A DNA stretch of 64,000 nucleotides from Acidimicrobiia bacterium (GTDB taxonomy: Bacteria > Actinomycetota > Acidimicrobiia > Spongiisociales > UBA11373): contig JAFGCH010000001.1 of assembly GCA_016932695.1 (NCBI GenBank), forward strand, positions 22,420 through 86,419, in the 5' to 3' direction. This document shows, piece after piece, positions 51,105 to 63,242 of the stretch (positions are counted from its first letter, which is position 1; every line of letters starts with the position of its first letter). The notes under the pieces were generated by a model, which did no database searches, was not told the DNA's origin, and saw nothing but the letters and a program-made list of their open reading frames with translations. Made by a program: the position numbers and the translations under genes.

Positions 51105-51977
51105 GTGCCCTTCCCGCCCGCCCCCCAGGGAGGCTTCACCGAGGACCGCGTCGTCTGGGTCTTCGGCCATCCCCGCTCCGGCACGACCTGGCTGGGCCAG
51201 CTACTCACCGACGGCCTCTCGCTGAAGATGTGGAACGAGCCCTACCTGGGGCAGTTCCTCAACTTCAGCAACCTGCTGCGCGAGAACGAGCCCAAGCGCT
51301 ACGAGGACCCCACCTTCTGGATGTCCGACCCCCAGGAAGAGAACTGGCGGGCTTCTCTCAACCTCTTCTTCATGGATGTCATCGCCCGCCAGGGCGGCCC
51401 CGCCGCCGGTTTCGGCGGCCTGGTGGTCAAAGAGCCCAACGGCACCGTGGTGTCCCCCCTGATCCTGCGGGCGATGCCGCGGGCCAAGGCCATCTTCATG
51501 CTGCGCGACCCTCGCGACGTGATCGCCTCGCTGATCGACGCCCGCAAGCCGGGCTCGTGGATGGACGAGCGGCTCACCCAGGAGTTCGACCGGGGCAAGA
51601 TCGTCAAGCAGTCGATCCGGCGCTTCGAGCGGATCGCCGAGGTGCTGGCCGAACTGGAGGCCGTCGCCCCCGGGCGCTTCTACGAGATGCGCTACGAGCG
51701 CCTGCGCGCCGACACCTTCGCCGAGATGCGGCACCTGGCCCACGTGCTCGACCTCCCCTGCGACGAGGCCGTCTTGCGCAAGGCGGTGGAACGCCACGCC
51801 TACGAGCGGATCCCCGAGGAGCGCAAAGGCCCCGGCAAGTTCGTGCGGACCGCCCGTGTCGGCGGCTGGGCCGAGGAACTGGAAGCGGAGGAGGCCGCCG
51901 CCATCCACCGCCGGCTGGGCACCTTCCTCGAGGCTCGCGGCTACCCGGTTCCGCAAGGGTCGCCGCGAACGCCATGA
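51105..51977 (+). CDS. Sulfotransferase (PAPS-dependent), family A
   Basis: GTG start 8 nt after AAAGG. 5'-PSB motif VWVFGHPRSGTTWL; 3'-PB motif IFMLRDPRDVIAS; C-terminal FVRTARVGGW. Confidence 0.7.
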   Translation: MPFPPAPQGGFTEDRVVWVFGHPRSGTTWLGQLLTDGLSLKMWNEPYLGQFLNFSNLLRENEPKRYEDPTFWMSDPQEENWRASLNLFFMDVIARQGGPAAGFGGLVVKEPNGTVVSPLILRAMPRAKAIFMLRDPRDVIASLIDARKPGSWMDERLTQEFDRGKIVKQSIRRFERIAEVLAELEAVAPGRFYEMRYERLRADTFAEMRHLAHVLDLPCDEAVLRKAVERHAYERIPEERKGPGKFVRTARVGGWAEELEAEEAAAIHRRLGTFLEARGYPVPQGSPRTP

Positions 51978-52009
51978 CCGCTCTCGGGCCAGTCGCCGGG
52001 GCCGCGCCG

Positions 52010-52770
52010 TGCTGATCACGGAGCACTTCGTCTTCGTCCACATCCCGAAGACCGGTGGGGACTTCATTCGCCGGGTCTGCCTAAAGCACCTGCCCCCGGA
52101 TTCGGTAGTGGCGCACCACATCGCCAAGCACGGGCGGGATACCGAGATTCCGGGGCCCTACCGCGGCCTCCCCCGCTTCGCCCTAGTGCGCAACCCTTGG
52201 GACTGGCACGTCTCCTGGTTCCACTACCTCATGGGCTCGGGCCGGCCCGAGGAGCACCGCGATCGGGTGCGGGTCATGAACCCCTGGTTCGTGACCTTGA
52301 GCGACGGCTTCCGCGCCGACTTCGGCACCACGATGCGCCGGCTCTACGACCCGGCGGTGGCGGCTTCCTTCTCGCCCCAATCGGTGGTGCGCGCCGCCGC
52401 CGAGCAGGAAGTCGACCTGCTGACCCTGCACCTGCGCCGCCAGACGGGGGCCAGCGAGGCCGAGGGGCGGCTCACCATGGGCCGCTTCGAGGACCTACGG
52501 CGGGACTTCCACCACTTCCTCGCCGCGCACAACGTGGAGATTCCCGAGGGCTTCCGCCGGGACCTCTACGAGCGCCCACCGATCAACCGGAGCCGCCGCT
52601 CTCGGTTCCAGGACTACTACGACCCGGAACTGCGCGGCATCATCGGCCGCTTCGCCGCCGGCACCATCGCCCGCTACGGCTACTCGTTCGAGGACGACGG
52701 CGCCGCGGCCCACGATGCCGACCCCGCCACCGGGGCGGGAGGGCGGGGCGGCGGCCGCCGTCTATCCTGA
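52010..52770 (+). CDS. Sulfotransferase, Sulfotransfer_2-like (carbohydrate sulfotransferase type)
   Basis: FVFVHIPKTGGDFI and RNPWDWHVSWFHY match the HIPKTGG / RDP-type motifs of carbohydrate sulfotransferases. Confidence 0.65.
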
Positions 52771-52796
52771 CCCGCACCCCGCCGACCGGAGGAGCG

Positions 52797-54533
52797 ATGC
52801 CCGCCGACCCTGCAACCTCCGGGGAGAGCGCCGCGGCCCCGCTGCTGATCCTCGGCGGGCACCGCTCCGGAACCTCCCTGGTCTCCGGCCTCTTCTGGCA
52901 TGCCGGCCTGCACATGGGGGAGCTGCTGCCCGGTGGGCCGGACAACCCCCGCGGCTTTTTTGAATCGGTGCAAGTCCTGGCGGCCCATCGGGCCCTGCTC
53001 GCCGCCCAGGAGCGCGACTGGACCTGCCCGCCGCACCGCCTGGACCCCCACACCTGTGATCTCGGCCCGCTGGCCGAGGTGATCCGCGACCTGGCCGCTC
53101 GGGGAAGGCCCTGGGGGGTGAAGGACCCGCGACTGCTCTTCCTGCTGCCCGCCTGGGTGGAGATCCTGCCGGCGATGCGCCTGATCGGCGTGCTGCGCCA
53201 TCCCGCCTCCGTGGCTGCCTCGCTCACGGCCCGCAACGGCTTCGCCCCCCCACATGCCCGCGCCGTAGCCGACGCCAATCTCACCCGCCTAGCCGCCCTG
53301 CAGCAGGCGCTCGGCTTCCCGGTGCTGGACTACGACGGCCCCGGGGAGGCCTTGCTCGCCGGGGCGCGTTCCGCTGCCCGGGCCATGGGGCTGGAGTGGG
53401 ACGAGGCTGCCGCCGCCGCTCTCTTCGACCCGGGGCTGCGCCATCAGGCCGCCCGCGGGCCCGGCGGGCCGGCCTACGACGCCCTTCTGGCGGCGGCGGC
53501 CGAGACGCCCGCCCTGAGCACCTACCAGGCCTGGGAGGTGGCCACCGCGTTGGCCGCCCTGCCCGATCGGGCAGACGAGGCGGTGCCCCTCGCCATCGGC
53601 CCGGCCTTCCTGCGGAGGCGGGCAGCCCTCTGGGGCTTCCGTGGCGAGTTCGGCCCGGAGTTGGGCAGAGTCCTCGAGGTGGCTCCCCCCGGAGCGCCGC
53701 GAGAGCCGCTTCTCGACGGAGTCGACCGCGCCGAGATCGACCTGGCGGTCGGGGAAGAGGAAGGCGAACAGAAGATCGCCGATCCCGTCGCCCGCTACAG
53801 CCATGTGCTGCTGACGGGCATCGCCGAGACCCTGGATCGGGTCGGCCTCACCGCCCTGCTCTCCCGGCTCGGCGCGGCGACTACCTCCGACGCCGTAGCG
53901 CTGTTCGACGACTTCGTCGTGGAGGGGATGACCCTGCCCCCGGTCAAGCGCTGGGGGCGGCTCAGCGCCACGACCTCCCGCCGCGGGCCTCTGCACCACC
54001 ACCACCTCGCCGAAATCGAAACGGCCGCCCTGGAAGCCGACTGGCTGGTGGGTGAGGTAGCCCTGAGCTCCGACGGCCGCAGCCGGGTGCGCCTGGTGAA
54101 ATCGGCCCAGCGCCGCTCCCCCGGCTGGGTGACCTCGGCCGAGCGCCGGGCCACGCTGGCGATCCGCGACGCCCAGATCGAGTCGGGGCAGCAGCGTATC
54201 GCCGAACTGCAGGCCCACATCAGCCGACTCGGGAGTGACGCCGAGAAAGCAGCCGCCGCCCACGCCGCCTCCATCGCGGCCGCCCAGGCCGAGGGTCGCG
54301 CCCGCCTCGAGCGGGAGCGACAGCGCAACCGGATGGCCTACGACGCCCTCCTCAAGGAGAACGCCGACATCCGGCACATGTACCACGAGAAGATCGGGGC
54401 GTTGAAGGACGAGGTGCGCCGGCTGCGCCGGCTGCGCAGCGTCCGCGGCTGGCTCGGTTTCCAGGCGCGCCGCTTGAGCCCCTCGCACGTGGCCGCGGCT
54501 TTCCGCCGGCGCCGCCACCCCCGGACGGGGTGA
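52797..54533 (+). CDS. Sulfotransferase domain protein with long C-terminal coiled-coil
   Basis: ATG after GGAGG. N-terminal PLLILGGHRSGTSLVSGLF is the PAPS P-loop-like motif. The C-terminal about 150 aa are heptad-rich (...AELQAHISRLGSDAEKAAAAHAASIAAAQAEGRARLERERQRN...). Confidence 0.65.
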   Translation: MPADPATSGESAAAPLLILGGHRSGTSLVSGLFWHAGLHMGELLPGGPDNPRGFFESVQVLAAHRALLAAQERDWTCPPHRLDPHTCDLGPLAEVIRDLAARGRPWGVKDPRLLFLLPAWVEILPAMRLIGVLRHPASVAASLTARNGFAPPHARAVADANLTRLAALQQALGFPVLDYDGPGEALLAGARSAARAMGLEWDEAAAAALFDPGLRHQAARGPGGPAYDALLAAAAETPALSTYQAWEVATALAALPDRADEAVPLAIGPAFLRRRAALWGFRGEFGPELGRVLEVAPPGAPREPLLDGVDRAEIDLAVGEEEGEQKIADPVARYSHVLLTGIAETLDRVGLTALLSRLGAATTSDAVALFDDFVVEGMTLPPVKRWGRLSATTSRRGPLHHHHLAEIETAALEADWLVGEVALSSDGRSRVRLVKSAQRRSPGWVTSAERRATLAIRDAQIESGQQRIAELQAHISRLGSDAEKAAAAHAASIAAAQAEGRARLERERQRNRMAYDALLKENADIRHMYHEKIGALKDEVRRLRRLRSVRGWLGFQARRLSPSHVAAAFRRRRHPRTG

Positions 54534-54537
54534 CGCC

Positions 54538-56658
54538 GTGGTCCGGCCGCCCGTCGACGTCATCATCCCCGTCTACAACGGCCATGCCGCCGTAGCGCGC
54601 TGCCTGGAGTCGGTGCTGGCTCATACCTCCGGCGAGGGGGTGCGCCTGGTGGTGGCCGACGACGCCAGCCCCGATCCCCGCCTTCCCGGTCTGCTCTCCT
54701 CCTTCGCCGCCCGCGACCCGCGCCTCACCGTCGTGCGCCGGGAACAGAATCTCGGCTTCGTGCGCAACTGCAACCTCGCTATGGAAGCCGCCTCGGGCGA
54801 CGTGGTCCTGCTCAACAGCGACACCGAGGTCCCCGCCGGCTGGCTGGAGCGCCTGCGTGCCCTGGCCCACTCGTCGGATCGAGTCGGATCGGTGACCCCT
54901 CTCTCCAACAACGCCACCATCTGCTCCGTCCCCCGGTGGCTGGAACCCAACTGCTACCCGCCGGGGGTCGACCTCGCCTTGCTCGACGAAGTGGCGCGCT
55001 CCTCCGGGACGGGTGAGTGGCTGGAGATCCCCACCTCGGTGGGTTTCTGCGTCTACTACCGGCGGGATGCCCTGGAGGCGGTCGGCTGCTTCGACGAAGA
55101 GCTCTTCGGCACCGGATACGGGGAGGAGAACGACCTCGCCTGCCGCATGCGGGAGCGCGGCTATCTGAACCTGCTCTGCGACGCCCTCTTCGTGTGGCAT
55201 GAGGGCGGGGTCTCCTTTGCCGAATCCGGCAGCGGCGACCTGGCGGGCAACCTGAGCCGTATCACGCAGCGCTGGCCGCGCTACCACGAGGTGGTACGCG
55301 GCTTCATCCAGCGCAACCCGCTGTGGGGGGTGCAGGCTCGCTTCGGCCTCGAACTGCTGCGCCGCACCAAGTCCGATCGGCGCCGGGTGCTCTACTTGGT
55401 TCACCATCGCCTCTGGGCGGGGATCATCGGAGGCACCGAGCTGCACCTCAGCGACCTCATCGAGAGCCTGGGAGAGTGCCTCGACCCGGTTGTGCTGAGC
55501 TTCGACGATTCCGGGAGGGGGACGGTGCAATGGCGTCCCGATGCCACCGCCCGGCTCGAGTTCCCCCTCGACCTGGGGAGCGCCCCCGACCCGGCCTCCT
55601 GGCTGGAGCGCCTGCTCGACGCCGGCATCGACCTGGTGCACTTCCAGCACACCATGCGGGCCCCCCTGCCGGTGGTCGGCGCCCTGCTCGAGGCCGCGGC
55701 GCACCGGCAGCTGCCGGTGGCCTGGACCCTGCACGACTACTTCCCCCTCTGCCCGGGCGCGCAACTACTCGACGCCGCCGACGGCACCCCATGCACCAGC
55801 CTGGGTGAGGGCCCGGCCTGTGCCGGCTGTGAGGACCAGGCCCGCCGTCTGGCCGGCTGCCTGGTAGCCGAGTGGCGCGACACCTACCGCAGCCTCCTGC
55901 AGCGAGCGGACCTCCTCATCACCCCGTCGGCCACCGCCCGCGAGATCATCCTCGGCTCGTTCCCGGAGCTGGCGCCCCGCCTGGTAGTACGGCCTCACGG
56001 AGTAGCCGACCCCGGGATTCTCCCTCTCCCCCACGGCCCGGCCCGCGGCCGCGTCGCCGTGCTGGGCTACGGGGGCCGCCACAAGGGGGACCGACTGCTG
56101 GGCGACGTCATCGACGCCCTCGAGGGCCGGCAGGTCACCTGGCACCTGTTCGGCCGGGAGCGGTTCGGAAACGGCTCGCGCCGCAACGTGGTCCTCCACG
56201 GCACATACCGCCGCGAGGATCTGCCCGGCCTGCTGGCTGCCGCCGAGATCGACCTGGTCCTGCTCCTCTCCCCCTGGGCGGAGACCTACTCGTACACCCT
56301 GTCGGAGGCCTGGCGGCTCGGCCTCCCCGTGGTGGGCTCCTCCTTGGGAGCCATCGGCGAGCGCCTCGCCTGCCTGGGCGGCGGGGTGACGGTGGACCCC
56401 TGGGACCCGGCGGCCGTGGCGGCCGCCGTCGGCCGCCTGCTCGACGACCCCCAGGCTATGGCCGCCCTCCGCTCCCAGGCAAGAGCGATCGGCCCCACCT
56501 TGCCTTCGCTGCAGGACATGGCCGACGACTACGCCGTCCTCTACGGCGCGCTCGCCCCCGAGAGGCGCTCGCCCGCCCCCCATCCCTTCCCCGTGGAGCC
56601 CGACCCGGGCGAGATGCAGGGCTGGATGGGCTCCTTCCGGTCGCCGCTGCGCTTCTGA
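54538..56658 (+). CDS. Bifunctional glycosyltransferase: N-terminal GT2 domain fused to C-terminal GT4 (group 1) domain
   Basis: VDVIIPVYNGHAAVARCLESV...RLVVADDASPD (GT2 with DxD). The C-terminal half has a GT4-type Rossmann fold (...EAWRLGLPVVGSSLGAIGERL...). Confidence 0.75.
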   Translation: MVRPPVDVIIPVYNGHAAVARCLESVLAHTSGEGVRLVVADDASPDPRLPGLLSSFAARDPRLTVVRREQNLGFVRNCNLAMEAASGDVVLLNSDTEVPAGWLERLRALAHSSDRVGSVTPLSNNATICSVPRWLEPNCYPPGVDLALLDEVARSSGTGEWLEIPTSVGFCVYYRRDALEAVGCFDEELFGTGYGEENDLACRMRERGYLNLLCDALFVWHEGGVSFAESGSGDLAGNLSRITQRWPRYHEVVRGFIQRNPLWGVQARFGLELLRRTKSDRRRVLYLVHHRLWAGIIGGTELHLSDLIESLGECLDPVVLSFDDSGRGTVQWRPDATARLEFPLDLGSAPDPASWLERLLDAGIDLVHFQHTMRAPLPVVGALLEAAAHRQLPVAWTLHDYFPLCPGAQLLDAADGTPCTSLGEGPACAGCEDQARRLAGCLVAEWRDTYRSLLQRADLLITPSATAREIILGSFPELAPRLVVRPHGVADPGILPLPHGPARGRVAVLGYGGRHKGDRLLGDVIDALEGRQVTWHLFGRERFGNGSRRNVVLHGTYRREDLPGLLAAAEIDLVLLLSPWAETYSYTLSEAWRLGLPVVGSSLGAIGERLACLGGGVTVDPWDPAAVAAAVGRLLDDPQAMAALRSQARAIGPTLPSLQDMADDYAVLYGALAPERRSPAPHPFPVEPDPGEMQGWMGSFRSPLRF

Positions 56659-56732
56659 GAGGCACCCGGCCGCCTTCGGCTACCCTCCGCCTCGTGCCCC
56701 TACCCGCCGCAACGGGAGGAGACCCCCTCCCG

Positions 56733-57725
56733 GTGGATGCCGACCTGCTGCGCCGCCGGCTGGCGGTGATGGCCGAGATGACTCATCTCCGCCGCTTCGT
56801 GGTCATCGGCCGCGGGAAGTCGGGGACGACCTGGCTGAGCCGCATCTTCCGCTCTCATCCGGAGGTCTTCCTGCGCGGCGAGCGCAAGCTGGTGGAGAAG
56901 ACCGCCGACTACACCCCGATCTTGCGCCACCTGCTCGACCCGGGGACGATGGCGGCATGGGGGGCGCACTCCTCCTTCCGTCTGGGGCTCCAGCCCGAAC
57001 GCATGGGCCCCGAGCTGTGGCGCCTGGTGGACGACTACCTCGCCGCCGCCACCCTCGTGGCCACGGGCACCGAGGTGACCGGGCTGACCCACCTCGGCGA
57101 CAAGCTGGCCCTGCTCCACCCGGAGGATGCCGCCGCCATCCTCCCCCACCTCGATCGCGCCTACCCCGGCTACCGGGCCATCCACATCGTGCGCGACGGA
57201 CGCGACGTCGCCGTCTCGGGTTTCTTCCATGTGTACCGCAACCGGGCGGCTGAGGGCGACGAGCCGTCGCCGCTGGTCCGCCGGGTGGAGAAGGTCTTGG
57301 AGGGAGGCGGTGGGAGGCTGTTCACCGATGAGCACCTCCGCTTCCGGGCACAGTCCTGGAACGACGTGACCACCGCCGTCGATGGCCTCCTGCGCCCGGC
57401 CTTGGGCGAGCGCTATCTGCTCCTGCGCTACGAGGACCTGCTGGCCGACACCCGGGCTTCCATCGAGCGCACCTTCGCGTTCGTAGGCGTCGGCTGCTCG
57501 CCCCAACTGGTGAGCGACATCCTCGAAGCCACTTCATTCAAGAAGATGTCCGGAGGCCGCCGGGCGGGCGAGCAGGACCCCAAGAGCGGGCGGCGCAAGG
57601 GCCAGGCAGGCGACTGGAAGAACTATTTCACCCCGCGCGACCGGGCCCTGTTCGCCGCCTTGGCCCAGCCCGCCCTCGAGCGCTTCGGCTACGAGCCCGA
57701 TGCCTCCTGGGCCGAGGCTCGCTGA
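56733..57725 (+). CDS. Sulfotransferase, Sulfotransfer_1 type
   Basis: VVIGRGKSGTTWLSRIF, IHIVRDGRDVAVS and RKGQAGDWKNYFT are all signature motifs. Start is GTG 56733 (after GGGAGGAG) or ATG 56769. Confidence 0.75.
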   Translation: MDADLLRRRLAVMAEMTHLRRFVVIGRGKSGTTWLSRIFRSHPEVFLRGERKLVEKTADYTPILRHLLDPGTMAAWGAHSSFRLGLQPERMGPELWRLVDDYLAAATLVATGTEVTGLTHLGDKLALLHPEDAAAILPHLDRAYPGYRAIHIVRDGRDVAVSGFFHVYRNRAAEGDEPSPLVRRVEKVLEGGGGRLFTDEHLRFRAQSWNDVTTAVDGLLRPALGERYLLLRYEDLLADTRASIERTFAFVGVGCSPQLVSDILEATSFKKMSGGRRAGEQDPKSGRRKGQAGDWKNYFTPRDRALFAALAQPALERFGYEPDASWAEAR

Positions 57726-57752: not shown

Positions 57753-59075
57753 TCACTCCCCGGCGCTCATCTCCTCCAAGTAGGTAGCGATCGAGGGCAG
57801 GCCGACCAGCTTGTCGTGGAAGAAGTTGTTCACCAGGTTGATCACCCGCTCGCGTGCCGCCTCCACCGCGGTGGAGCGAATCCCCCCCTGGCCCTCGCGG
57901 GTGAGGGTGTCGCGCAGTTGCAGGAGCAGGCGCACGATCTCCTCCTCCTCGGGGCCCTCCAGAGCGCGCAGCACGTCCAGGATGAGCGCGTCCACCTGCG
58001 CCAGCAGGGTGTCCAGGGAGATCGTGGAGCCCGGCTCGGCGGCCTCCTCCACAGTGCGCAGCACGGCGTGCACCTGGTAGAGCACGGCCGTCGGCTCGTC
58101 GAAGAGCTCGCGCAGGAAAGCGGCTTCCTCGTAGCGCCCGCTGAGGCGGAACACGTTGTACATGCGCTTGGCCGCCTTGCCGTAGTTGCGCGGCTCGTGA
58201 GCCACGTACTTGCGCACCTCGCGCTCGAGTTGGGCGACGTAGTCGGCGAGGGCGTCGGGAGACACGTGGCGCACCAGCTTGGAGAACACCGGCACCGACT
58301 CCGCCTCCAGGTAGACCTCCTGGAAGTAGGGGTCGAGGTAGCCATCGAGCGGGGTGATACTCCCGTCGGGAGCCTCCCAAGTGACGTCGAGCATGTTCGA
58401 GGCGTTGGCCACCTGACGGCGCACCGGGTCGGCCACCACCCAGTCGAGCTTGCACCACCCGGGGTCCGGGGCCACTTCGTCCCAGGTCACCTCCACCGCC
58501 TCACCCCCCGCCCCCTCTCCCGCCAGCCGCCCCGCCCGGATCTCGTCGGGCTTCCAGGCGATCGGCGTGCCCGCCCGGCAGAGACGCTCGCCGCGCCGCA
58601 GGTCCCGGGGGTAGTTGCCGAACTTCACCTCGATCAGCCGGTAGGTCTCGCCGGCGAGAGTGGCCAGGGCCTTCTCCCGCATCAGCTCGGCCAGTCGGCG
58701 GCAGGCTTCCTCCCGGGTGGGGGCGATGATGTTGACGCGCTCGAAGTAGTCGCAATCCCCCGGGTAGGTCTGGATCTTCGACTGCGCCGCCGACCCCGAC
58801 AGGGCCAGGGCGGTCTCCACCCCGGGAGCATCGTCGAAGCCCACCAGGCGGCCTACGGCCCGGAAATGGGCTAGATCCTCCGGGCTGAAGTCGAGCATGG
58901 AGACGCGGTGGCCGAACACTCCGGCGGCATGGTCCACCACCAACTCACCGCTGTCGGTGGCCGCCATCGCGCCCAGCCACTGCAGGGCGTCGGCCTCGTC
59001 CAACTCCACCCCGAGGCGACGCGCCGAAGTGAGGATGCGCTCGAGGTCGGCTCCGGGGGTGGGTTGCTGGGTCAT
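57753..59075 (-). CDS. Uncharacterised protein with Pol-beta-type nucleotidyltransferase signature and helical C-terminal half
   Basis: 440 aa. ALSGSAAQSKIQTYPGDCDYFERV fits hG[GS]-x(9-13)-DxD. The remainder is predicted helical. ATG overlaps the stop of the upstream exonuclease gene (ATGA). Confidence 0.4.
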   Translation of the reverse strand: MTQQPTPGADLERILTSARRLGVELDEADALQWLGAMAATDSGELVVDHAAGVFGHRVSMLDFSPEDLAHFRAVGRLVGFDDAPGVETALALSGSAAQSKIQTYPGDCDYFERVNIIAPTREEACRRLAELMREKALATLAGETYRLIEVKFGNYPRDLRRGERLCRAGTPIAWKPDEIRAGRLAGEGAGGEAVEVTWDEVAPDPGWCKLDWVVADPVRRQVANASNMLDVTWEAPDGSITPLDGYLDPYFQEVYLEAESVPVFSKLVRHVSPDALADYVAQLEREVRKYVAHEPRNYGKAAKRMYNVFRLSGRYEEAAFLRELFDEPTAVLYQVHAVLRTVEEAAEPGSTISLDTLLAQVDALILDVLRALEGPEEEEIVRLLLQLRDTLTREGQGGIRSTAVEAARERVINLVNNFFHDKLVGLPSIATYLEEMSAGE

Positions 59076-59653
59076 CTCATTCTCTCCTCGTAGGGGTCAC
59101 GGCTGGGGTTGGGGAGCACGGCCAGTAGACGGCGGAAGACCTCGGCCTGGATCAGGGCGTCCTGCAGGGCATGGTGGGGAAGTTCGGCGTGCAGGCTCAG
59201 GCGCCCGGCCACCGCGGCGAAAGAGGTGCGCTCCCACGGCTCCCCCGTCACCCCCATGTACAGGGCCTTGATGTCCAGCGCGCCATGGCCGAAGGGGTTG
59301 GGCACCCCGAAGCGCCGGAAGTAATCGGCCACGAACATCCAATCGAAGGAGGCGTTGAAGGCCACGAACACCGGGCGGCCGCCCGGGGGCGTCACCCCCT
59401 CCACCCAGGAGGCGAAGCGCGCCATGGCCTCTGCGGGGGCCAGGCCCTCCGCGGCCAGGCGATCGAGGCTGAGCCCGCTGATCGCCAGCGCCACTGGGTC
59501 GGCCTCACGCGTCGCCGGCTGCAGTTCGGCGTAGAACGTATGCCGGGGATCATGGACCAGGCAAGCGCCAAGGGAGAGCAGGGGGTAGACGCAGGGCGCC
59601 GGCCCGGCGGTTTCGACATCGACGGAGATGAACACCTCGGGCACGCCCGGCAC
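59072..59653 (-). CDS. DEDDh-family 3'-5' exonuclease (DnaQ-like)
   Basis: Exo I SVDVETAG, Exo II FNASFDWMF and Exo III HHALQDA, the last with His so it is DEDDh. 193 aa. Confidence 0.7.
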   Translation of the reverse strand: MPGVPEVFISVDVETAGPAPCVYPLLSLGACLVHDPRHTFYAELQPATREADPVALAISGLSLDRLAAEGLAPAEAMARFASWVEGVTPPGGRPVFVAFNASFDWMFVADYFRRFGVPNPFGHGALDIKALYMGVTGEPWERTSFAAVAGRLSLHAELPHHALQDALIQAEVFRRLLAVLPNPSRDPYEERMR

Positions 59654-59823
59654 CCTAGCCGGGGTGGGGGGGGAACCCCGCCCGTGCCGGCGGGCCCGCC
59701 ACCGGTGGTACGCCGAGGGCCAAACCGGAGGATTGGAGTAGTGGGCCGGCTGCGGCGCGGGCGGTGATGGCCCGGCCCCCCCCTCCCCCGGCGGATCGTG
59801 CCGGGCCGTGCAACCATGCGCCC

Positions 59824-61116
59824 ATGAGATGGTGCCTCTTGATGGTGCCCTTGGCGCTGATGGGCTGCGCCTCTCCTCCCCTCGCCGGGCCCGCCCCCGC
59901 CGAGCCGATGCGCCTGCTGGTCGCGGGCACGGTCGATCTCTCCGGGCCGGCCGCCACGGTGGCTCGAGCCGATACGGACGGTCTCTTCCGCGAGATTCGC
60001 CTGGCCGCCCGGCGGGCGGATGTAGCCGTGGTGGTCGCCGCTACCTCGGGGGCGGCGGATCTCCTGGCCGCCGCCGGCTTCACCGCCGTGGCTTGCCCCG
60101 ACGAGGCGGGGCCCTCCGCTCTCATGCCGGCCTCCCCCGCCGCGGCATCGGTGCGCCTGCGCTGTGCCACCGGCCGGGGACTCGACCCGGCCCCGGCGAC
60201 CGTAGCGCCGTGGGCGCCCACCCTGCTGGTCTCGGTGGCGCCGGCGCCCCCGGGGTTCGCCCCGCCCCAGGCCGATCTGGTGGTGACCTCGGCCGGCCCC
60301 TCACCTGCGGCTCGGGTCGTCGGCTTTCTGCCGGGACACCTGAGCCTGGTGGTCTCCGGTCTCGGCTCCTTGCTCTCCCCCGATCCCACCGCCCCCGGCG
60401 CCCTGCTCGAGGTGCTCGCCGATGCCGAAGGCGTGGTCGCCTACCGCCTGGGCCGGGTCGCCCACCACGACTTCCGGGTGCACTTCTCCGGATGGGACCT
60501 GCCTCGCGGTGACGCCGTCCTGCTGGACGGGGAATGGTGGACGCTGGCCCGACCGGCCGATCCCGCCCCGGTACGTCCCCCGCCCGACGGACTCGCCTTC
60601 ACCTACGGCGACCTGGTGGCGGCTGCAATCGGCGACGCCACCGGCGACGGCCTTCTCGACCTCGCCGCCTCCTACCGCCACCCCTTCCGCCCCAGCACCC
60701 TCAGCGAGGCCCGGCCCGGCGTGGTGGGCATGGACTCCTTAGGCCGCAGCGCCCACCTGGGGGTCTTCACCCTCTCGGGCGAAGCGCTGTGGGCGGCCGG
60801 GTACATCTGGCGGCCCGTGGGAGACCTGGCGGCCTGCGAGGGAGCGGTCGCCCTGGCCTATACCGGCCTCGACGACCCGGCCGTGGTGGCCACCGGCGCG
60901 GCCGTGTGGCAGGGGCTGAGCCTGGAAGCCGCCCCGGAGCTCCCCGGAAGCGGCCGTCCCGGCTGTGCCGACGTGGACGGGGACGGCCGCCAGGACCCGG
61001 TGATCCTGGGCCGCGCCGGATATCTCACGCGAACCGCTTCGGGGGACCATACTTGGCGCGACACCTCCCAGGGGGATCACCCATGCGCCCCTCCCGCCGT
61101 CTGCTCGCCGTCCTGA
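59824..61116 (+). CDS. Lipoprotein with CapA-like N-terminal region and FG-GAP/VCBS-like repeat
   Basis: MRWCLLMVPLALMGCASP (lipobox); ...CADVDGDGRQDPVILG is an FG-GAP-like Ca-binding loop. Its 3' end overlaps the next gene's start. Confidence 0.45.
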   Translation: MRWCLLMVPLALMGCASPPLAGPAPAEPMRLLVAGTVDLSGPAATVARADTDGLFREIRLAARRADVAVVVAATSGAADLLAAAGFTAVACPDEAGPSALMPASPAAASVRLRCATGRGLDPAPATVAPWAPTLLVSVAPAPPGFAPPQADLVVTSAGPSPAARVVGFLPGHLSLVVSGLGSLLSPDPTAPGALLEVLADAEGVVAYRLGRVAHHDFRVHFSGWDLPRGDAVLLDGEWWTLARPADPAPVRPPPDGLAFTYGDLVAAAIGDATGDGLLDLAASYRHPFRPSTLSEARPGVVGMDSLGRSAHLGVFTLSGEALWAAGYIWRPVGDLAACEGAVALAYTGLDDPAVVATGAAVWQGLSLEAAPELPGSGRPGCADVDGDGRQDPVILGRAGYLTRTASGDHTWRDTSQGDHPCAPPAVCSPS

Positions 61117-63242
61117 TGGCCGGCGCGTTGCTCGCCGCTTGTAGCGGCGACTCCGCCGTGTTCACCACCACGACGACCACCACCGTGCCGACCACTACCA
61201 CTTCCCCTTCGACCACCACCAGCACCACCACCTCATCCACAACCACCACGCCACCCCCGTCGACGACTACCACGACGACCCTGCCCGGCGGGGAGCCGGG
61301 CGCGGTTCCCAGCGCCCTCCCCTCGAAGGCAGCCTTCGCCCCCTTCGCCGCGGTTCCCCTGCTCGACGGCACGTCCATGAGAATCCCCGACCAGCCCACC
61401 TCGCTGGACGACGTCTACTGGGAGTTCAAGGTCACCGATCCGGAGTACCCCGAGCCGCGCGCTCTGCGCGAAGACCTGGCGCGCGACGGCTTCGCCATCG
61501 ACGGTTCCTGGTCCAGCCAGGTGCTGCACACCATCTACTCGTACACCGCCCGTTACGCCGACGGCCCGGTGTACGTCACCACCGACGCCGGCTATCACGA
61601 GTGGCATCTGGTGTTCTCCAAGGCCCTGCGGGACACCGAGGAGCAGGTGCTCCTCCCCCTGCTGGAGGAGCTGGTCGGAGGGCTGCTGGCCGCCTCCACG
61701 GAGCCCGGCAACCCGCCCGATGACGCCGCCGCTCAGGAAGACGTCCGCCTCTACCTGCAGGCCGTCGCCACCATCCTGGGCCTCGACGCGGGGGTGATCG
61801 GCGCCCGGGCCACCGAGGAGGTCGGCCTGGTCGACCTGCACGCCGAAATGGCCGAGTCCCCGACGCTGGGCGTGGAGGTCGACTACACCCTGATGACCCC
61901 TCGCGGCCACTACACCCGGAGCGAGGGTCTCACCCGGTACTTCAAGGCCATGGCGATGTTGGGGGCGACGCCCTTCCCCATCGACGACCCCGATGCTCTC
62001 CGCCGGGCTTGGTGTCTGAGCTCTCTGCTCACCACCCGGCCGGCGCTCCTCGACGCCTGGGAGCGCATCTACGAAACGACGTCCTTTCTGGTGGGCGCCG
62101 CCGACGACTACACCCCGCGGGAACTGATGGCGGCGCTGGAAGCCGCAGGCGGAAGCAACGACGACGCTGCCATGGCTGCCGTGGGTGCCGCGCTGGCGGC
62201 CGTCCGCCCGGTGCTCATCGACGCCGAGAAGGCGTCGGTGCGCGCCATGGGGGCCCGCTTCGTGCTCGACTCGTTCCTGCTCGACCAACTGGTCCACCCC
62301 CAGGTGTGGCAGCGTCTCGAGGCTTCGGTGCTCGATGTCGCCGGCGCGATGGGATCCGACTGGGCCCTGGCCCAGCAGGAGGCGGCCGGCGTGCCCGCGG
62401 AGTACCCCGAGTACGGCGAACGCCTCACCGCCCTGCGCGACCTGGTCGCGACCCGTCCCCCGGCCGATTGGGGCGGCACGGTCTACGACGCCTGGCTCTA
62501 CGCCATCCTTCCCATGTGGCTCCCCCGCGGTGTCGAGTACCCCGATTACATGCAGACCGAGGCCTGGGCGGCTCGTTCCCATGAGGGGGGCTTCGGCTCC
62601 TATGCCGAGTTGAAGCACGACACCGTCCTCTACTCCAAGCAGGGTTTTGCCGAGGGCGACGAGCCGCTGCCCCCGGCCCCGCCCCGCCACTGGGTCGAGC
62701 CCGACCCGGTGCCCTTCGAGCGCCTGGCCGAGGCGGCCCGGCTGCTGCGCACCGGGCTGGCCGACCGGGCACTGCTCACCGACGAGACCCGCGACCTGCT
62801 CGACGGCCTCATCGCCATGGAGACTCGCTTCGGGCGCATCGCCCGCGACGAACTGGCCGGGCGCCCCATCTCGGCGGCCGACAACGACTGGCTGGCGGCG
62901 ATAGGCAGCGACTTCGAACTGCTATGGCTGCAGGCCGGAGACGGAGAGGCGGATTACCTGGGTGGCTTCGGTGACGACCCCGACAGCCGGGCCCCAGTGG
63001 TCGTGGACATCTTCTCCAATCCCTGGGATGCCCTGGAGATCGCCACCGGGGGCTTCGACACCCTGTACGTGCTGGTGCCCAACGACGAAGGGCACTTCCA
63101 GGTGGCCGTCGGGGCCGTCTACGCCTTCTACGAGTTCTGGGTGCCTCGCGGCGAGCGCCTCACCGACGAGGAGTGGCGGGAGATGCTGATGAACCGGGAA
63201 GCCCCGGACCGCCCGTCCTGGCTGGCCTTCCTCTACGAATGA
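61083..63242 (+). CDS. DUF3160-like lipoprotein with Thr/Pro-rich linker
   Basis: MRPSRRLLAVLMAGALLAACSG (lipobox), then TTTTTTTVPTTTTSPSTTTSTTTSSTTTTPPPSTTTTTT, then a large roughly 650-aa domain resembling DUF3160. Confidence 0.55.
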   Translation: MRPSRRLLAVLMAGALLAACSGDSAVFTTTTTTTVPTTTTSPSTTTSTTTSSTTTTPPPSTTTTTTLPGGEPGAVPSALPSKAAFAPFAAVPLLDGTSMRIPDQPTSLDDVYWEFKVTDPEYPEPRALREDLARDGFAIDGSWSSQVLHTIYSYTARYADGPVYVTTDAGYHEWHLVFSKALRDTEEQVLLPLLEELVGGLLAASTEPGNPPDDAAAQEDVRLYLQAVATILGLDAGVIGARATEEVGLVDLHAEMAESPTLGVEVDYTLMTPRGHYTRSEGLTRYFKAMAMLGATPFPIDDPDALRRAWCLSSLLTTRPALLDAWERIYETTSFLVGAADDYTPRELMAALEAAGGSNDDAAMAAVGAALAAVRPVLIDAEKASVRAMGARFVLDSFLLDQLVHPQVWQRLEASVLDVAGAMGSDWALAQQEAAGVPAEYPEYGERLTALRDLVATRPPADWGGTVYDAWLYAILPMWLPRGVEYPDYMQTEAWAARSHEGGFGSYAELKHDTVLYSKQGFAEGDEPLPPAPPRHWVEPDPVPFERLAEAARLLRTGLADRALLTDETRDLLDGLIAMETRFGRIARDELAGRPISAADNDWLAAIGSDFELLWLQAGDGEADYLGGFGDDPDSRAPVVVDIFSNPWDALEIATGGFDTLYVLVPNDEGHFQVAVGAVYAFYEFWVPRGERLTDEEWREMLMNREAPDRPSWLAFLYE

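Follow-up and report, generated by a model that had tools for sequence, protein, structure and literature searches.

A Cap18-clade exonuclease gene overlapping the gene for a predicted Pol-beta-type nucleotidyltransferase of an unannotated family

The gene pair and its exonuclease

The subject of this study is a pair of minus-strand genes in a stretch of 64,000 nucleotides (nt), referred to in full as the window, from contig JAFGCH010000001.1 of an Acidimicrobiia bacterium. The upstream gene encodes a 193-residue exonuclease with Exo I, II and III motifs and the downstream gene a 440-residue protein that is predicted to be a nucleotidyltransferase. The two genes overlap by the four nucleotides ATGA, an arrangement proposed earlier from the letters of the DNA (the sequence-only reading) and confirmed here at the coordinates in Table 1. 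The minus-strand junction of the genes reads ...GAGGAGAGAATGAGATGACC..., and the G+C content is 71% across the region. The exonuclease starts with a GTG codon, with an alternative GTG three codons downstream at 59644, and its start is uncertain by these three codons, since the NCBI call for a 99%-identical protein (P0271) is 190 residues long. A hypothetical protein (P0001) encoded in an Acidimicrobiia metagenome-assembled genome (MAG) matches the 440-residue protein with 100% identity. Both genes are real and more than chance open reading frames (ORFs), as thousands of homologues and motif residues invariant across 85 loci attest.

The exonuclease contains, in order, the DxE, Nx3D and Hx4D motifs of the DEDDh (DnaQ-like) superfamily, and these are invariant or nearly so among 93 partner exonucleases from related loci (Table 1), in full agreement with the DEDDh assignment made earlier; Pro18 is likewise conserved in all 93. 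Generic Pfam models respond weakly, Rv2179c-like with 27.2 bits (just over its cut-off) and RNase_T with 23.3 bits (just under), and DnaQ-type NCBIfam models score far under their cut-offs. The PADLOC model PDLC00753 (labelled 'Effector', with the description 'Exonuclease'), however, matches the protein end to end with an E-value of 6.8e-65 and 216 bits; on the same model the Cap18 protein of Escherichia coli scores 300 bits and three partner exonucleases from other loci score 214-244 bits. A search of Protein Data Bank (PDB) chains yields 7T2S (E 2e-43, gapless alignment of 172 residues), the sequence of which is that of Cap18, the 3'-5' exonuclease of the type III operon of the cyclic-oligonucleotide-based antiphage signaling system (CBASS) in E. 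coli upec-117. The next chain, the PolC exonuclease domain, follows about 39 orders of magnitude behind (E 1e-4), and RNase T reaches only E 6e-4. By BLASTP the exonuclease is 43% identical to Cap18 of the upec-117 operon (E 8e-53), which encodes an MTA/SAH nucleosidase, a WYL regulator, a 'CBASS oligonucleotide cyclase', a hypothetical protein, an AAA ATPase, the 3'-5' exonuclease and a further hypothetical protein. Residues D9, E11, P15, N97, D101, H157 and D162 of VcExo correspond to D12, E14, P18, N100, D104, H160 and D165 here. The sequence thus places the exonuclease, which has about 2500 homologous clusters, in the Cap18 / CBASS-associated Exo clade, now in a new context, and at this level the connection drawn earlier with exonuclease-bearing CBASS does hold.

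The clade has been studied in CBASS. Cap18 was named by Blankenchip et al., and its catalytically dead mutant D165N, altered at the counterpart of D165 in the Exo III motif here, did not abolish defence (10.1101/2022.01.04.474952). According to Yan et al., in a preprint of 2025-26, about 4% of CBASS operons carry 'Exo'; neither activity on nor binding to DNA or RNA was detected for the Serratia marcescens enzyme (SmExo), and Exo homologues including that of E. coli upec-117 hydrolyse 2'-5' dinucleotides and 2-5A, and the 3'-5' isomers little. Exo was concluded to degrade the released pppA[2'-5']pG intermediate of 3',2'-cGAMP synthesis and thereby to set an activation threshold (10.1101/2025.03.04.641389). 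The role of Cap18-type exonucleases as 2'-5'-specific phosphodiesterases that tune bacterial cGAS-like enzymes has only recently been shown.

Table 1 Features of the gene pair (window positions)
Feature	Position	Strand	Basis or conservation
193-residue DEDDh exonuclease gene, Cap18 / CBASS 'Exo' clade by sequence	59072..59653	minus	ORF listing, PADLOC, PDB, BLASTP
440-residue gene, predicted two-lobed Pol-beta-type nucleotidyltransferase of an unannotated family, Mg662/virophage-like fold	57753..59075	minus	ORF listing, AF2, Foldseek
ATGA overlap (exonuclease TGA / nucleotidyltransferase ATG)	59072..59075	minus	sequence read
GAGGAG Shine-Dalgarno sequence of the 440-residue gene, within the end of the exonuclease gene, 8-nt spacer to ATG	59084..59089	minus	sequence read
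Exo I motif D12-V-E14	59612..59620	minus	D and E kept in 92-93 of 93 partner exonucleases
Exo II motif N100-A-S-F-D104	59342..59356	minus	N100 and D104 invariant in 93/93 partner exonucleases
Exo III motif H160-H-A-L-Q-D165 ('h' of DEDDh)	59159..59176	minus	invariant in 93/93 partner exonucleases
hG[GS]-x11-DxD segment L92-F111, LSGSAAQSKIQTYPGDCDYF (G94 S95, then 11 residues, then D107-C-D109)	58743..58802	minus	sequence and model
E149, candidate third metal ligand (I-E-V on the first strand past helix 121-138)	58629..58631	minus	invariant in 85 loci; E or D in 24/26 divergent members
D230 (NMLDVTW), alternative candidate third metal ligand (long strand 221-234)	58386..58388	minus	invariant in 26/26 divergent members and 85 loci
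K300-AAKRMYNVF-R310, candidate NTP-binding helix, first helix of the C-terminal lobe (298-312 in the model)	58146..58178	minus	K300, R304, Y306, N307 and R310 invariant family-wide
Weak Rfam match to CRISPR-DR8 inside the nucleotidyltransferase ORF	58749-58779	plus	20 bits against a 39-bit gathering score, E 0.54
AF2, AlphaFold2; NTP, nucleoside triphosphate

The CRISPR-DR8 match was rejected as chance-level, and scans with Rfam and for promoters and terminators detected no riboswitch, promoter or terminator around the pair.

Predicted fold and relatives of the 440-residue protein

The 440-residue protein belongs to an unannotated family with no characterised member. Neither the protein itself nor 48 diverse family members matched any Pfam, NCBIfam, PADLOC or PHROG model, and neither single-sequence nor profile searches of the PDB returned anything beyond chance; chance-level matches to DUF2267, SAT, Sestrin and StAR were discarded. 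The single hG[GS]-x11-DxD motif pointed out by the sequence-only reading is present, and G94, S95, D107 and D109 are invariant in 85/85 loci, the latter three also in members at 28-49% identity.

Two AlphaFold models were obtained, one from 26 close homologues with a predicted local distance difference test (pLDDT) score of 77, and a second from 48 sequences down to 30% identity with a pLDDT of 88.8 and a predicted template modelling (pTM) score of 0.86. In the model, a small N-terminal module of two helices and a hairpin (residues 1-62) precedes a core that consists of helix 65-78, strand 86-93, G94-S95, a loop, and strand 107-117, which opens with D107-x-D109. Helix 121-138, strand 145-154, a beta-rich insert (155-207) and the long strands 208-216 and 221-234 come next, and residues 258-438 form a lobe of eight helices. 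The 'long helical region' noted earlier after the motif is thus borne out by the eight-helix lobe, however, it does not follow directly, as a helix and a beta-rich stretch (145-255) intervene. As in the Pol-beta superfamily, hG[GS] follows strand 1 and DxD lies on strand 2. The protein is therefore predicted with good confidence to be a two-lobed Pol-beta-type nucleotidyltransferase, with the GS and DxD motifs at the canonical strand-helix-strand position, as the sequence-only reading had anticipated.

Residues invariant throughout the family are G94, S95, D107, D109, D230, W233, D244, Y279, K300, R304, Y306, N307 and R310. The last five lie on one helix with the pattern K300...R304-x-Y306-N307, which we take to resemble the triphosphate- and base-binding residues in the C-lobes of poly(A) polymerase (PAP)- and OAS-type enzymes, and by this analogy the helix K300-R310 likely binds NTP. 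The family is uniformly acidic in every domain (isoelectric point 4.4-5.1, net charge about -25), which suits small-nucleotide substrates better than nucleic-acid substrates.

Several distant members at 28-35% identity (P0221, P0162, P0197 and P0222) have signal-peptide-like N-termini or long N-terminal fusions; P0221 (1291 residues) combines AbfB, F-box-associated, C-type lectin and PLAT domains, and P0162 (1067 residues) carries a PQQ beta-propeller. Their sequences suggest that distant paralogues with identical catalytic residues may be secreted or glycan-targeted.

The sole significant relatives in Foldseek searches of the PDB, with either model, are structures of Mg662 from Megavirus chilensis (4AMQ, 4AMS and 4XUL), labelled 'a new nucleotidyl transferase' in their entries, one of which contains bound GTP. 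These matches have E-values of 5e-6 to 3e-5, probability 1.0 and template modelling (TM) scores of 0.4-0.54, and significant similarity to a solved nucleotidyltransferase was thus found with two independent models. Among the viral models in BFVD, 15 proteins match at E <=1e-5, led by a 442-residue Zamilon virophage protein (V6BPH6; E 1e-12, TM 0.57) and including a Fadolivirus 'V21 virophage-like protein', a Pithovirus 'nucleotidyl transferase' and proteins of Yellowstone Lake virophage 5 (YSLV5), Qinghai Lake virophage and mavirus. The nearest structural kin of the family are thus uncharacterised proteins of giant viruses and virophages, and common descent with them would rest on the predicted fold, not on sequence. 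As a side observation, the virophage and giant-virus 'V21 virophage-like' proteins share the two-lobed nucleotidyltransferase fold of Mg662 in BFVD; Sputnik V21/OLV5 was catalogued in 2013 as 'no detectable domains, unknown' (PMC3671162).

Our data do not lend support for membership in the cGAS/DncV-like nucleotidyltransferases (CD-NTases) or OAS-like enzymes, whose layout the sequence-only reading had found to match. None of the 48 family members matches a PADLOC cyclase model, although a control CdnC matches 23 of them. The family profile aligns by hhalign with CdnC of the Cap18-bearing E. coli operon at a probability of 0.5%, and with human OAS1 (sequence verified against 4IG8) at 0.1%. Foldseek matches behind Mg662 are not significant (FAM46A/C, OAS1, AadA, CdnE, CdnB and NF90; E 0.02-0.6, TM about 0.2); these comprise the FAM46/TENT5 poly(A) polymerases, which rank next after Mg662 (E 0.02-0.06, TM about 0.2), OAS1 (1px5; E 0.03-0.07, TM 0.16-0.22) and CdnE, CdnB and DwCdnB (E 0.16-0.56, TM 0.16-0.26). 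On these three lines of evidence the protein is not recognisable as a member of the CD-NTase/SMODS/OAS/cGAS group.

Distribution, linkage and neighbourhood

The nucleotidyltransferase family is chromosomal and strongly conserved. A word-indexed search with the 440-residue protein returned 6074 clusters, the best 120 of which are 65-100% identical and come from MAGs of Acidimicrobiia, Actinomycetota, Anaerolineae and Chloroflexi; an exhaustive search at 50% clustering gave 720 representatives, many of them fragments. Counted with one genome per species, at least 589 species carry the gene. Most of them belong to Anaerolineales/Chloroflexota or Acidimicrobiia, a few to Armatimonadota and one to Pyrinomonadaceae, and the cultured Levilinea saccharolytica KIBI-1 (locus L026) is one of the carriers. 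No homologues were found in phage and plasmid collections by tblastn or in IMG/VR by a pattern scan. The nucleotidyltransferase is better conserved than its partner, with a median identity of 64% versus 53%, and its identity across phyla is 62-74%.

Linkage was surveyed in 163 loci, 137 of which fall in the core clade, defined by 60% or more identity to the nucleotidyltransferase of the window; enough upstream sequence was available for 126 core-clade loci and for 17 divergent loci (34-59% identity). In 95 of these 126 core-clade loci (75%) the exonuclease gene directly precedes that of the nucleotidyltransferase in the same orientation, with gaps of -4 to about 290 nt, and it does so in none of the 17 divergent ones. 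Its presence follows the clades, since it is found throughout some subclades (26/26, 11/11 and 6/6) and is absent from others (8/8 and 4/4 without). That the exonuclease is dispensable in whole subclades fits an accessory regulator, as in CBASS. In the reverse direction, all three exonuclease homologues surveyed (about 62% identity) have the nucleotidyltransferase downstream, two of these copies being frameshifted in long-read assemblies. Homologues that lack the exonuclease and stand in housekeeping contexts, a pattern named earlier as unfavourable to the proposed pairing, thus make up about a quarter of the core clade and all sampled divergent relatives, and the remaining core clade is paired. 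This weakens the reading as a defence island but not the assignment of the nucleotidyltransferase. Exonuclease-less and divergent loci contain no substitute phosphodiesterase or conserved partner, only local synteny with genes for a PMT_2 glycosyltransferase and nadC-like and HAD-like proteins.

Two further observations concern the paired loci. Downstream of the exonuclease, the nucleotidyltransferase is split over two or three frames at L086 (5577-6885) and L088 (5655-6907), either by frameshift errors in long-read metagenome assemblies or by pseudogenisation. In a Pyrinomonadaceae (Acidobacteriota) locus (L052, 834-1361) the upstream slot holds a more divergent DEDDh exonuclease, 32% identical to that of the window.

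Annotated neighbourhoods vary and are of housekeeping type, with tRNA synthetases, ABC transporters, EF-G, NAD synthase and sigma-70/DnaG among others, and the exonuclease is directly upstream in each. In 21 loci a glycyl-tRNA synthetase (GlyRS) gene, on the opposite strand, is found downstream as lineage-specific synteny; other tRNA synthetase neighbours are ThrRS/CysRS at L001 and HisRS at L088. No neighbour other than the exonuclease is conserved beyond such lineage-specific synteny. A gene of the DUF3786 family (about 226 residues) directly follows the nucleotidyltransferase, by 7-118 nt and on the same strand, in 17 loci (for example L005 9358-10038 and L025 7340-8041), and the exonuclease is present as well in most of them. 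The window lacks this gene, which may belong to the operon as its third member in some Chloroflexota or may merely reflect local synteny. Genes for an effector, a CD-NTase, Cap2/Cap3, HORMA/TRIP13 or CapW were found neither in the window nor in about 160 related loci, which extends the earlier remark that no effector is obvious nearby.

Within the window the pair is flanked by plus-strand genes on both sides. The convergent cluster at 51856-57725 comprises three sulfotransferase-like ORFs and one 706-residue glycosyltransferase that is a fusion of GT2 and GT4/GT1, and its product is probably a sulfated glycan. The divergent genes at 59764-63242, separated from the exonuclease gene by about 110 nt, encode two lipoprotein-like proteins. 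One contains an FG-GAP repeat, and the other is a DUF3160 protein (E 2e-126) in which the lipobox is followed by a long linker rich in Thr, Ser and Pro. The earlier suggestion that the pair may belong with either of these groups was rejected, as their orientation is opposed and they are not conserved beside the pair elsewhere.

Candidate functions and comparison with known systems

The reading that we tentatively favour is that the pair consists of a synthase and a phosphodiesterase for a 2'-5'-linked nucleotide product whose receptor is encoded elsewhere, and is not a CBASS operon. The two genes would form one translationally coupled unit, in which the 440-residue protein, as an active nucleotidyltransferase, condenses NTPs to a small 2'-5'-containing product or intermediate, be it a linear or cyclic dinucleotide or oligonucleotide. 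The Cap18-type DEDDh enzyme would hydrolyse 2'-5' species and so keep their level under a threshold, as Cap18/Exo does with pppA[2'-5']pG, or serve as an off-switch. The receptor or target would be encoded elsewhere, and the pair resembles the synthase and hydrolase of a chromosomal messenger system whose receptors are dispersed. As the only known biochemistry of the clade is that of a 2'-5' phosphodiesterase on small products of nucleotidyltransferases, and the partner is an acidic nucleotidyltransferase, synthesis and removal of a 2'-5' species is the most economical mechanism. Location on the chromosome, synteny and very high conservation indicate a signalling or stress pathway passed on by vertical descent, as opposed to a mobile anti-phage island, and the missing effector, mobility and defence-island context together with the unusually strong conservation speak against a CBASS operon.

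Several points weigh against this reading. The functions of both proteins and of all family members are predicted from sequences and models, and literature searches found no published function for Mg662 or the Megaviridae nucleotidyl transferase. The 440-residue protein has no sequence likeness and no significant structural likeness to CD-NTases or OAS, which to our knowledge are the only enzymes that make Cap18-type substrates. The unpaired quarter of the core clade and the unpaired divergent relatives count here as well, as does the finding that no receptor or effector gene is linked in the window or the related loci. In the exonuclease pocket, position 123 is His, where Phe (F120/F123) stacks on the substrate in VcExo/SmExo, assuming an offset of +3, and the E. 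coli enzyme has Ile; position 54, the counterpart of the guanine-binding Glu51 of Vc, is Val in the window exonuclease and Glu or Asp in 76 of 93 partners. These differences imply that substrate specificity may differ.

An alternative that we hold to be unlikely assigns the pair to RNA 3' ends, where the nucleotidyltransferase would add untemplated nucleotides to tRNA or small RNA and the DEDDh enzyme would trim the end, in analogy to the end-turnover cycle of RNase T and the CCA-adding enzyme or to a non-canonical poly(A) polymerase with an exoribonuclease. The housekeeping, chromosomal and syntenic context, in which genes for aminoacyl-tRNA synthetases are frequent neighbours (GlyRS in 21 loci), agrees with it, as do the very strong conservation, typical of core RNA metabolism, the rank of FAM46/TENT5 next after Mg662, though not significant, and the weak RNase T and Rv2179c-like Pfam matches of the exonuclease. 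However, the tRNA synthetase synteny is lineage-specific and on the opposite strand, the exonuclease resembles RNase T (E 6e-4) far less closely than Cap18 (E 2e-43), and the strong acidity of the nucleotidyltransferase in all domains is unusual for an RNA-binding polymerase. Furthermore, SmExo of the same clade was not seen to bind DNA or RNA or to act on either (10.1101/2025.03.04.641389).

It is also quite improbable, in our view, that the nucleotidyltransferase modifies a protein or small molecule (by AMPylation of GlnE/MntA type, or like aminoglycoside-modifying enzymes) and is merely co-transcribed with an exonuclease of separate role. The linkage with one specific subclade of exonucleases is tight, stable within clades and in many cases an overlap, which speaks for a substrate common to both enzymes. 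Such a function would accord with the many relatives that operate without the exonuclease, with an acidic enzyme that could bind a basic protein substrate, with the secreted or lectin-fused distant paralogues, which suggest non-nucleic-acid targets in those branches, and with the appearance of AadA among the weak Foldseek matches; the latter match is not significant (E 0.15), however, and the two lobes with a helical C-lobe place the protein with the PAP/OAS/CD-NTase group and not with minimal MNT/KNTase enzymes. Very improbable, in our judgement, is a genuine anti-phage CBASS-like system with an extremely divergent cyclase and an effector that is unlinked or unrecognised. Its appeal is that Cap18-type exonucleases have so far been described in CBASS operons only (10.1101/2022.01.04.474952, 10.1101/2025.03.04.641389), that the exonuclease passes the PADLOC model for CBASS exonucleases and that the partner has a predicted nucleotidyltransferase fold. 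Against it stand the failed searches for effector, Cap2/Cap3, HORMA/TRIP13 and CapW genes in the related loci and for homologues in phage, plasmid and IMG/VR collections, the cyclase models that recognise the control CdnC and none of the 48 family members, the stable positions among housekeeping neighbours and not in defence islands, and a cross-phylum identity unlike that of fast-evolving defence genes.

The synthase and phosphodiesterase reading follows a logic already known from CBASS, namely the pairing of a nucleotidyltransferase with a Cap18-type exonuclease. What sets the present case apart is that, in many non-model genomes, the Cap18 clade is stably joined to another kind of nucleotidyltransferase, which is unannotated and conserved to an extraordinary degree, and that no effector accompanies the two. 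It makes the testable prediction that the 440-residue enzyme forms a 2'-5'-linked product, for which Levilinea saccharolytica provides a cultured source organism. If true, the pair would represent a new messenger system based on nucleotides, and signalling by 2'-5' nucleotides would no longer be confined to CBASS and OAS. The Mg662/virophage V21-like family, which giant viruses and virophages have conserved, would then receive its first biochemical function. A wider proposition, which is conceivable but doubtful, is that Chloroflexota and Acidimicrobiia possess vertically inherited 2'-5' nucleotide signalling outside defence islands, in which the synthase is the founding cellular member of the Mg662/V21 family and the Cap18-type phosphodiesterase sets the level. 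Should the pair instead tail and trim RNA, it would constitute a new housekeeping RNA-end pathway in the same two groups.

Among known systems, RNase T and the CCA-adding enzyme set a precedent for such a pairing in tRNA 3'-end turnover. Together with FAM46/TENT5 they share with the window pair the functional combination of a DEDDh exonuclease and a Pol-beta nucleotidyltransferase in a housekeeping context, but RNase T is remote from the window exonuclease, the FAM46 match is not significant and the 440-residue protein is acidic. CD-NTases, OAS1 and cGAS, the known source of 2'-5'-linked Cap18-type substrates, have in common with the 440-residue protein the fold class of the superfamily and a helical C-lobe, and OAS1 in addition the GS-x(11-12)-DxD spacing (S63 to D75 in 4IG8); unlike CD-NTases and OAS, the 440-residue protein has an extra N-terminal module of about 60 residues and the beta-rich insert 155-207. 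Mg662 and the virophage proteins resemble it over the whole two-lobed architecture, with about 370-440 aligned columns, similar lengths and a probability of 1.0, however, they are only 10-17% identical, with TM scores of 0.4-0.6 and root-mean-square deviations of 6-8 Å, belong to viruses of eukaryotic hosts and are not known to have an exonuclease partner. Compared with Cap18 systems, the window pair lies outside any CBASS operon, with no CD-NTase, effector, HORMA/TRIP13, CapW or Cap19, has a nucleotidyltransferase of an unrelated family as partner, and carries H123 in place of Phe or Ile, as well as V54. It shares with Cap18/CBASS Exo the DEDDh clade, with 43% gapless identity, a full-length PADLOC match, the catalytic residues and P18, and in both settings the exonuclease is encoded beside a nucleotidyltransferase of the Pol-beta superfamily, as an accessory and not an obligatory component.

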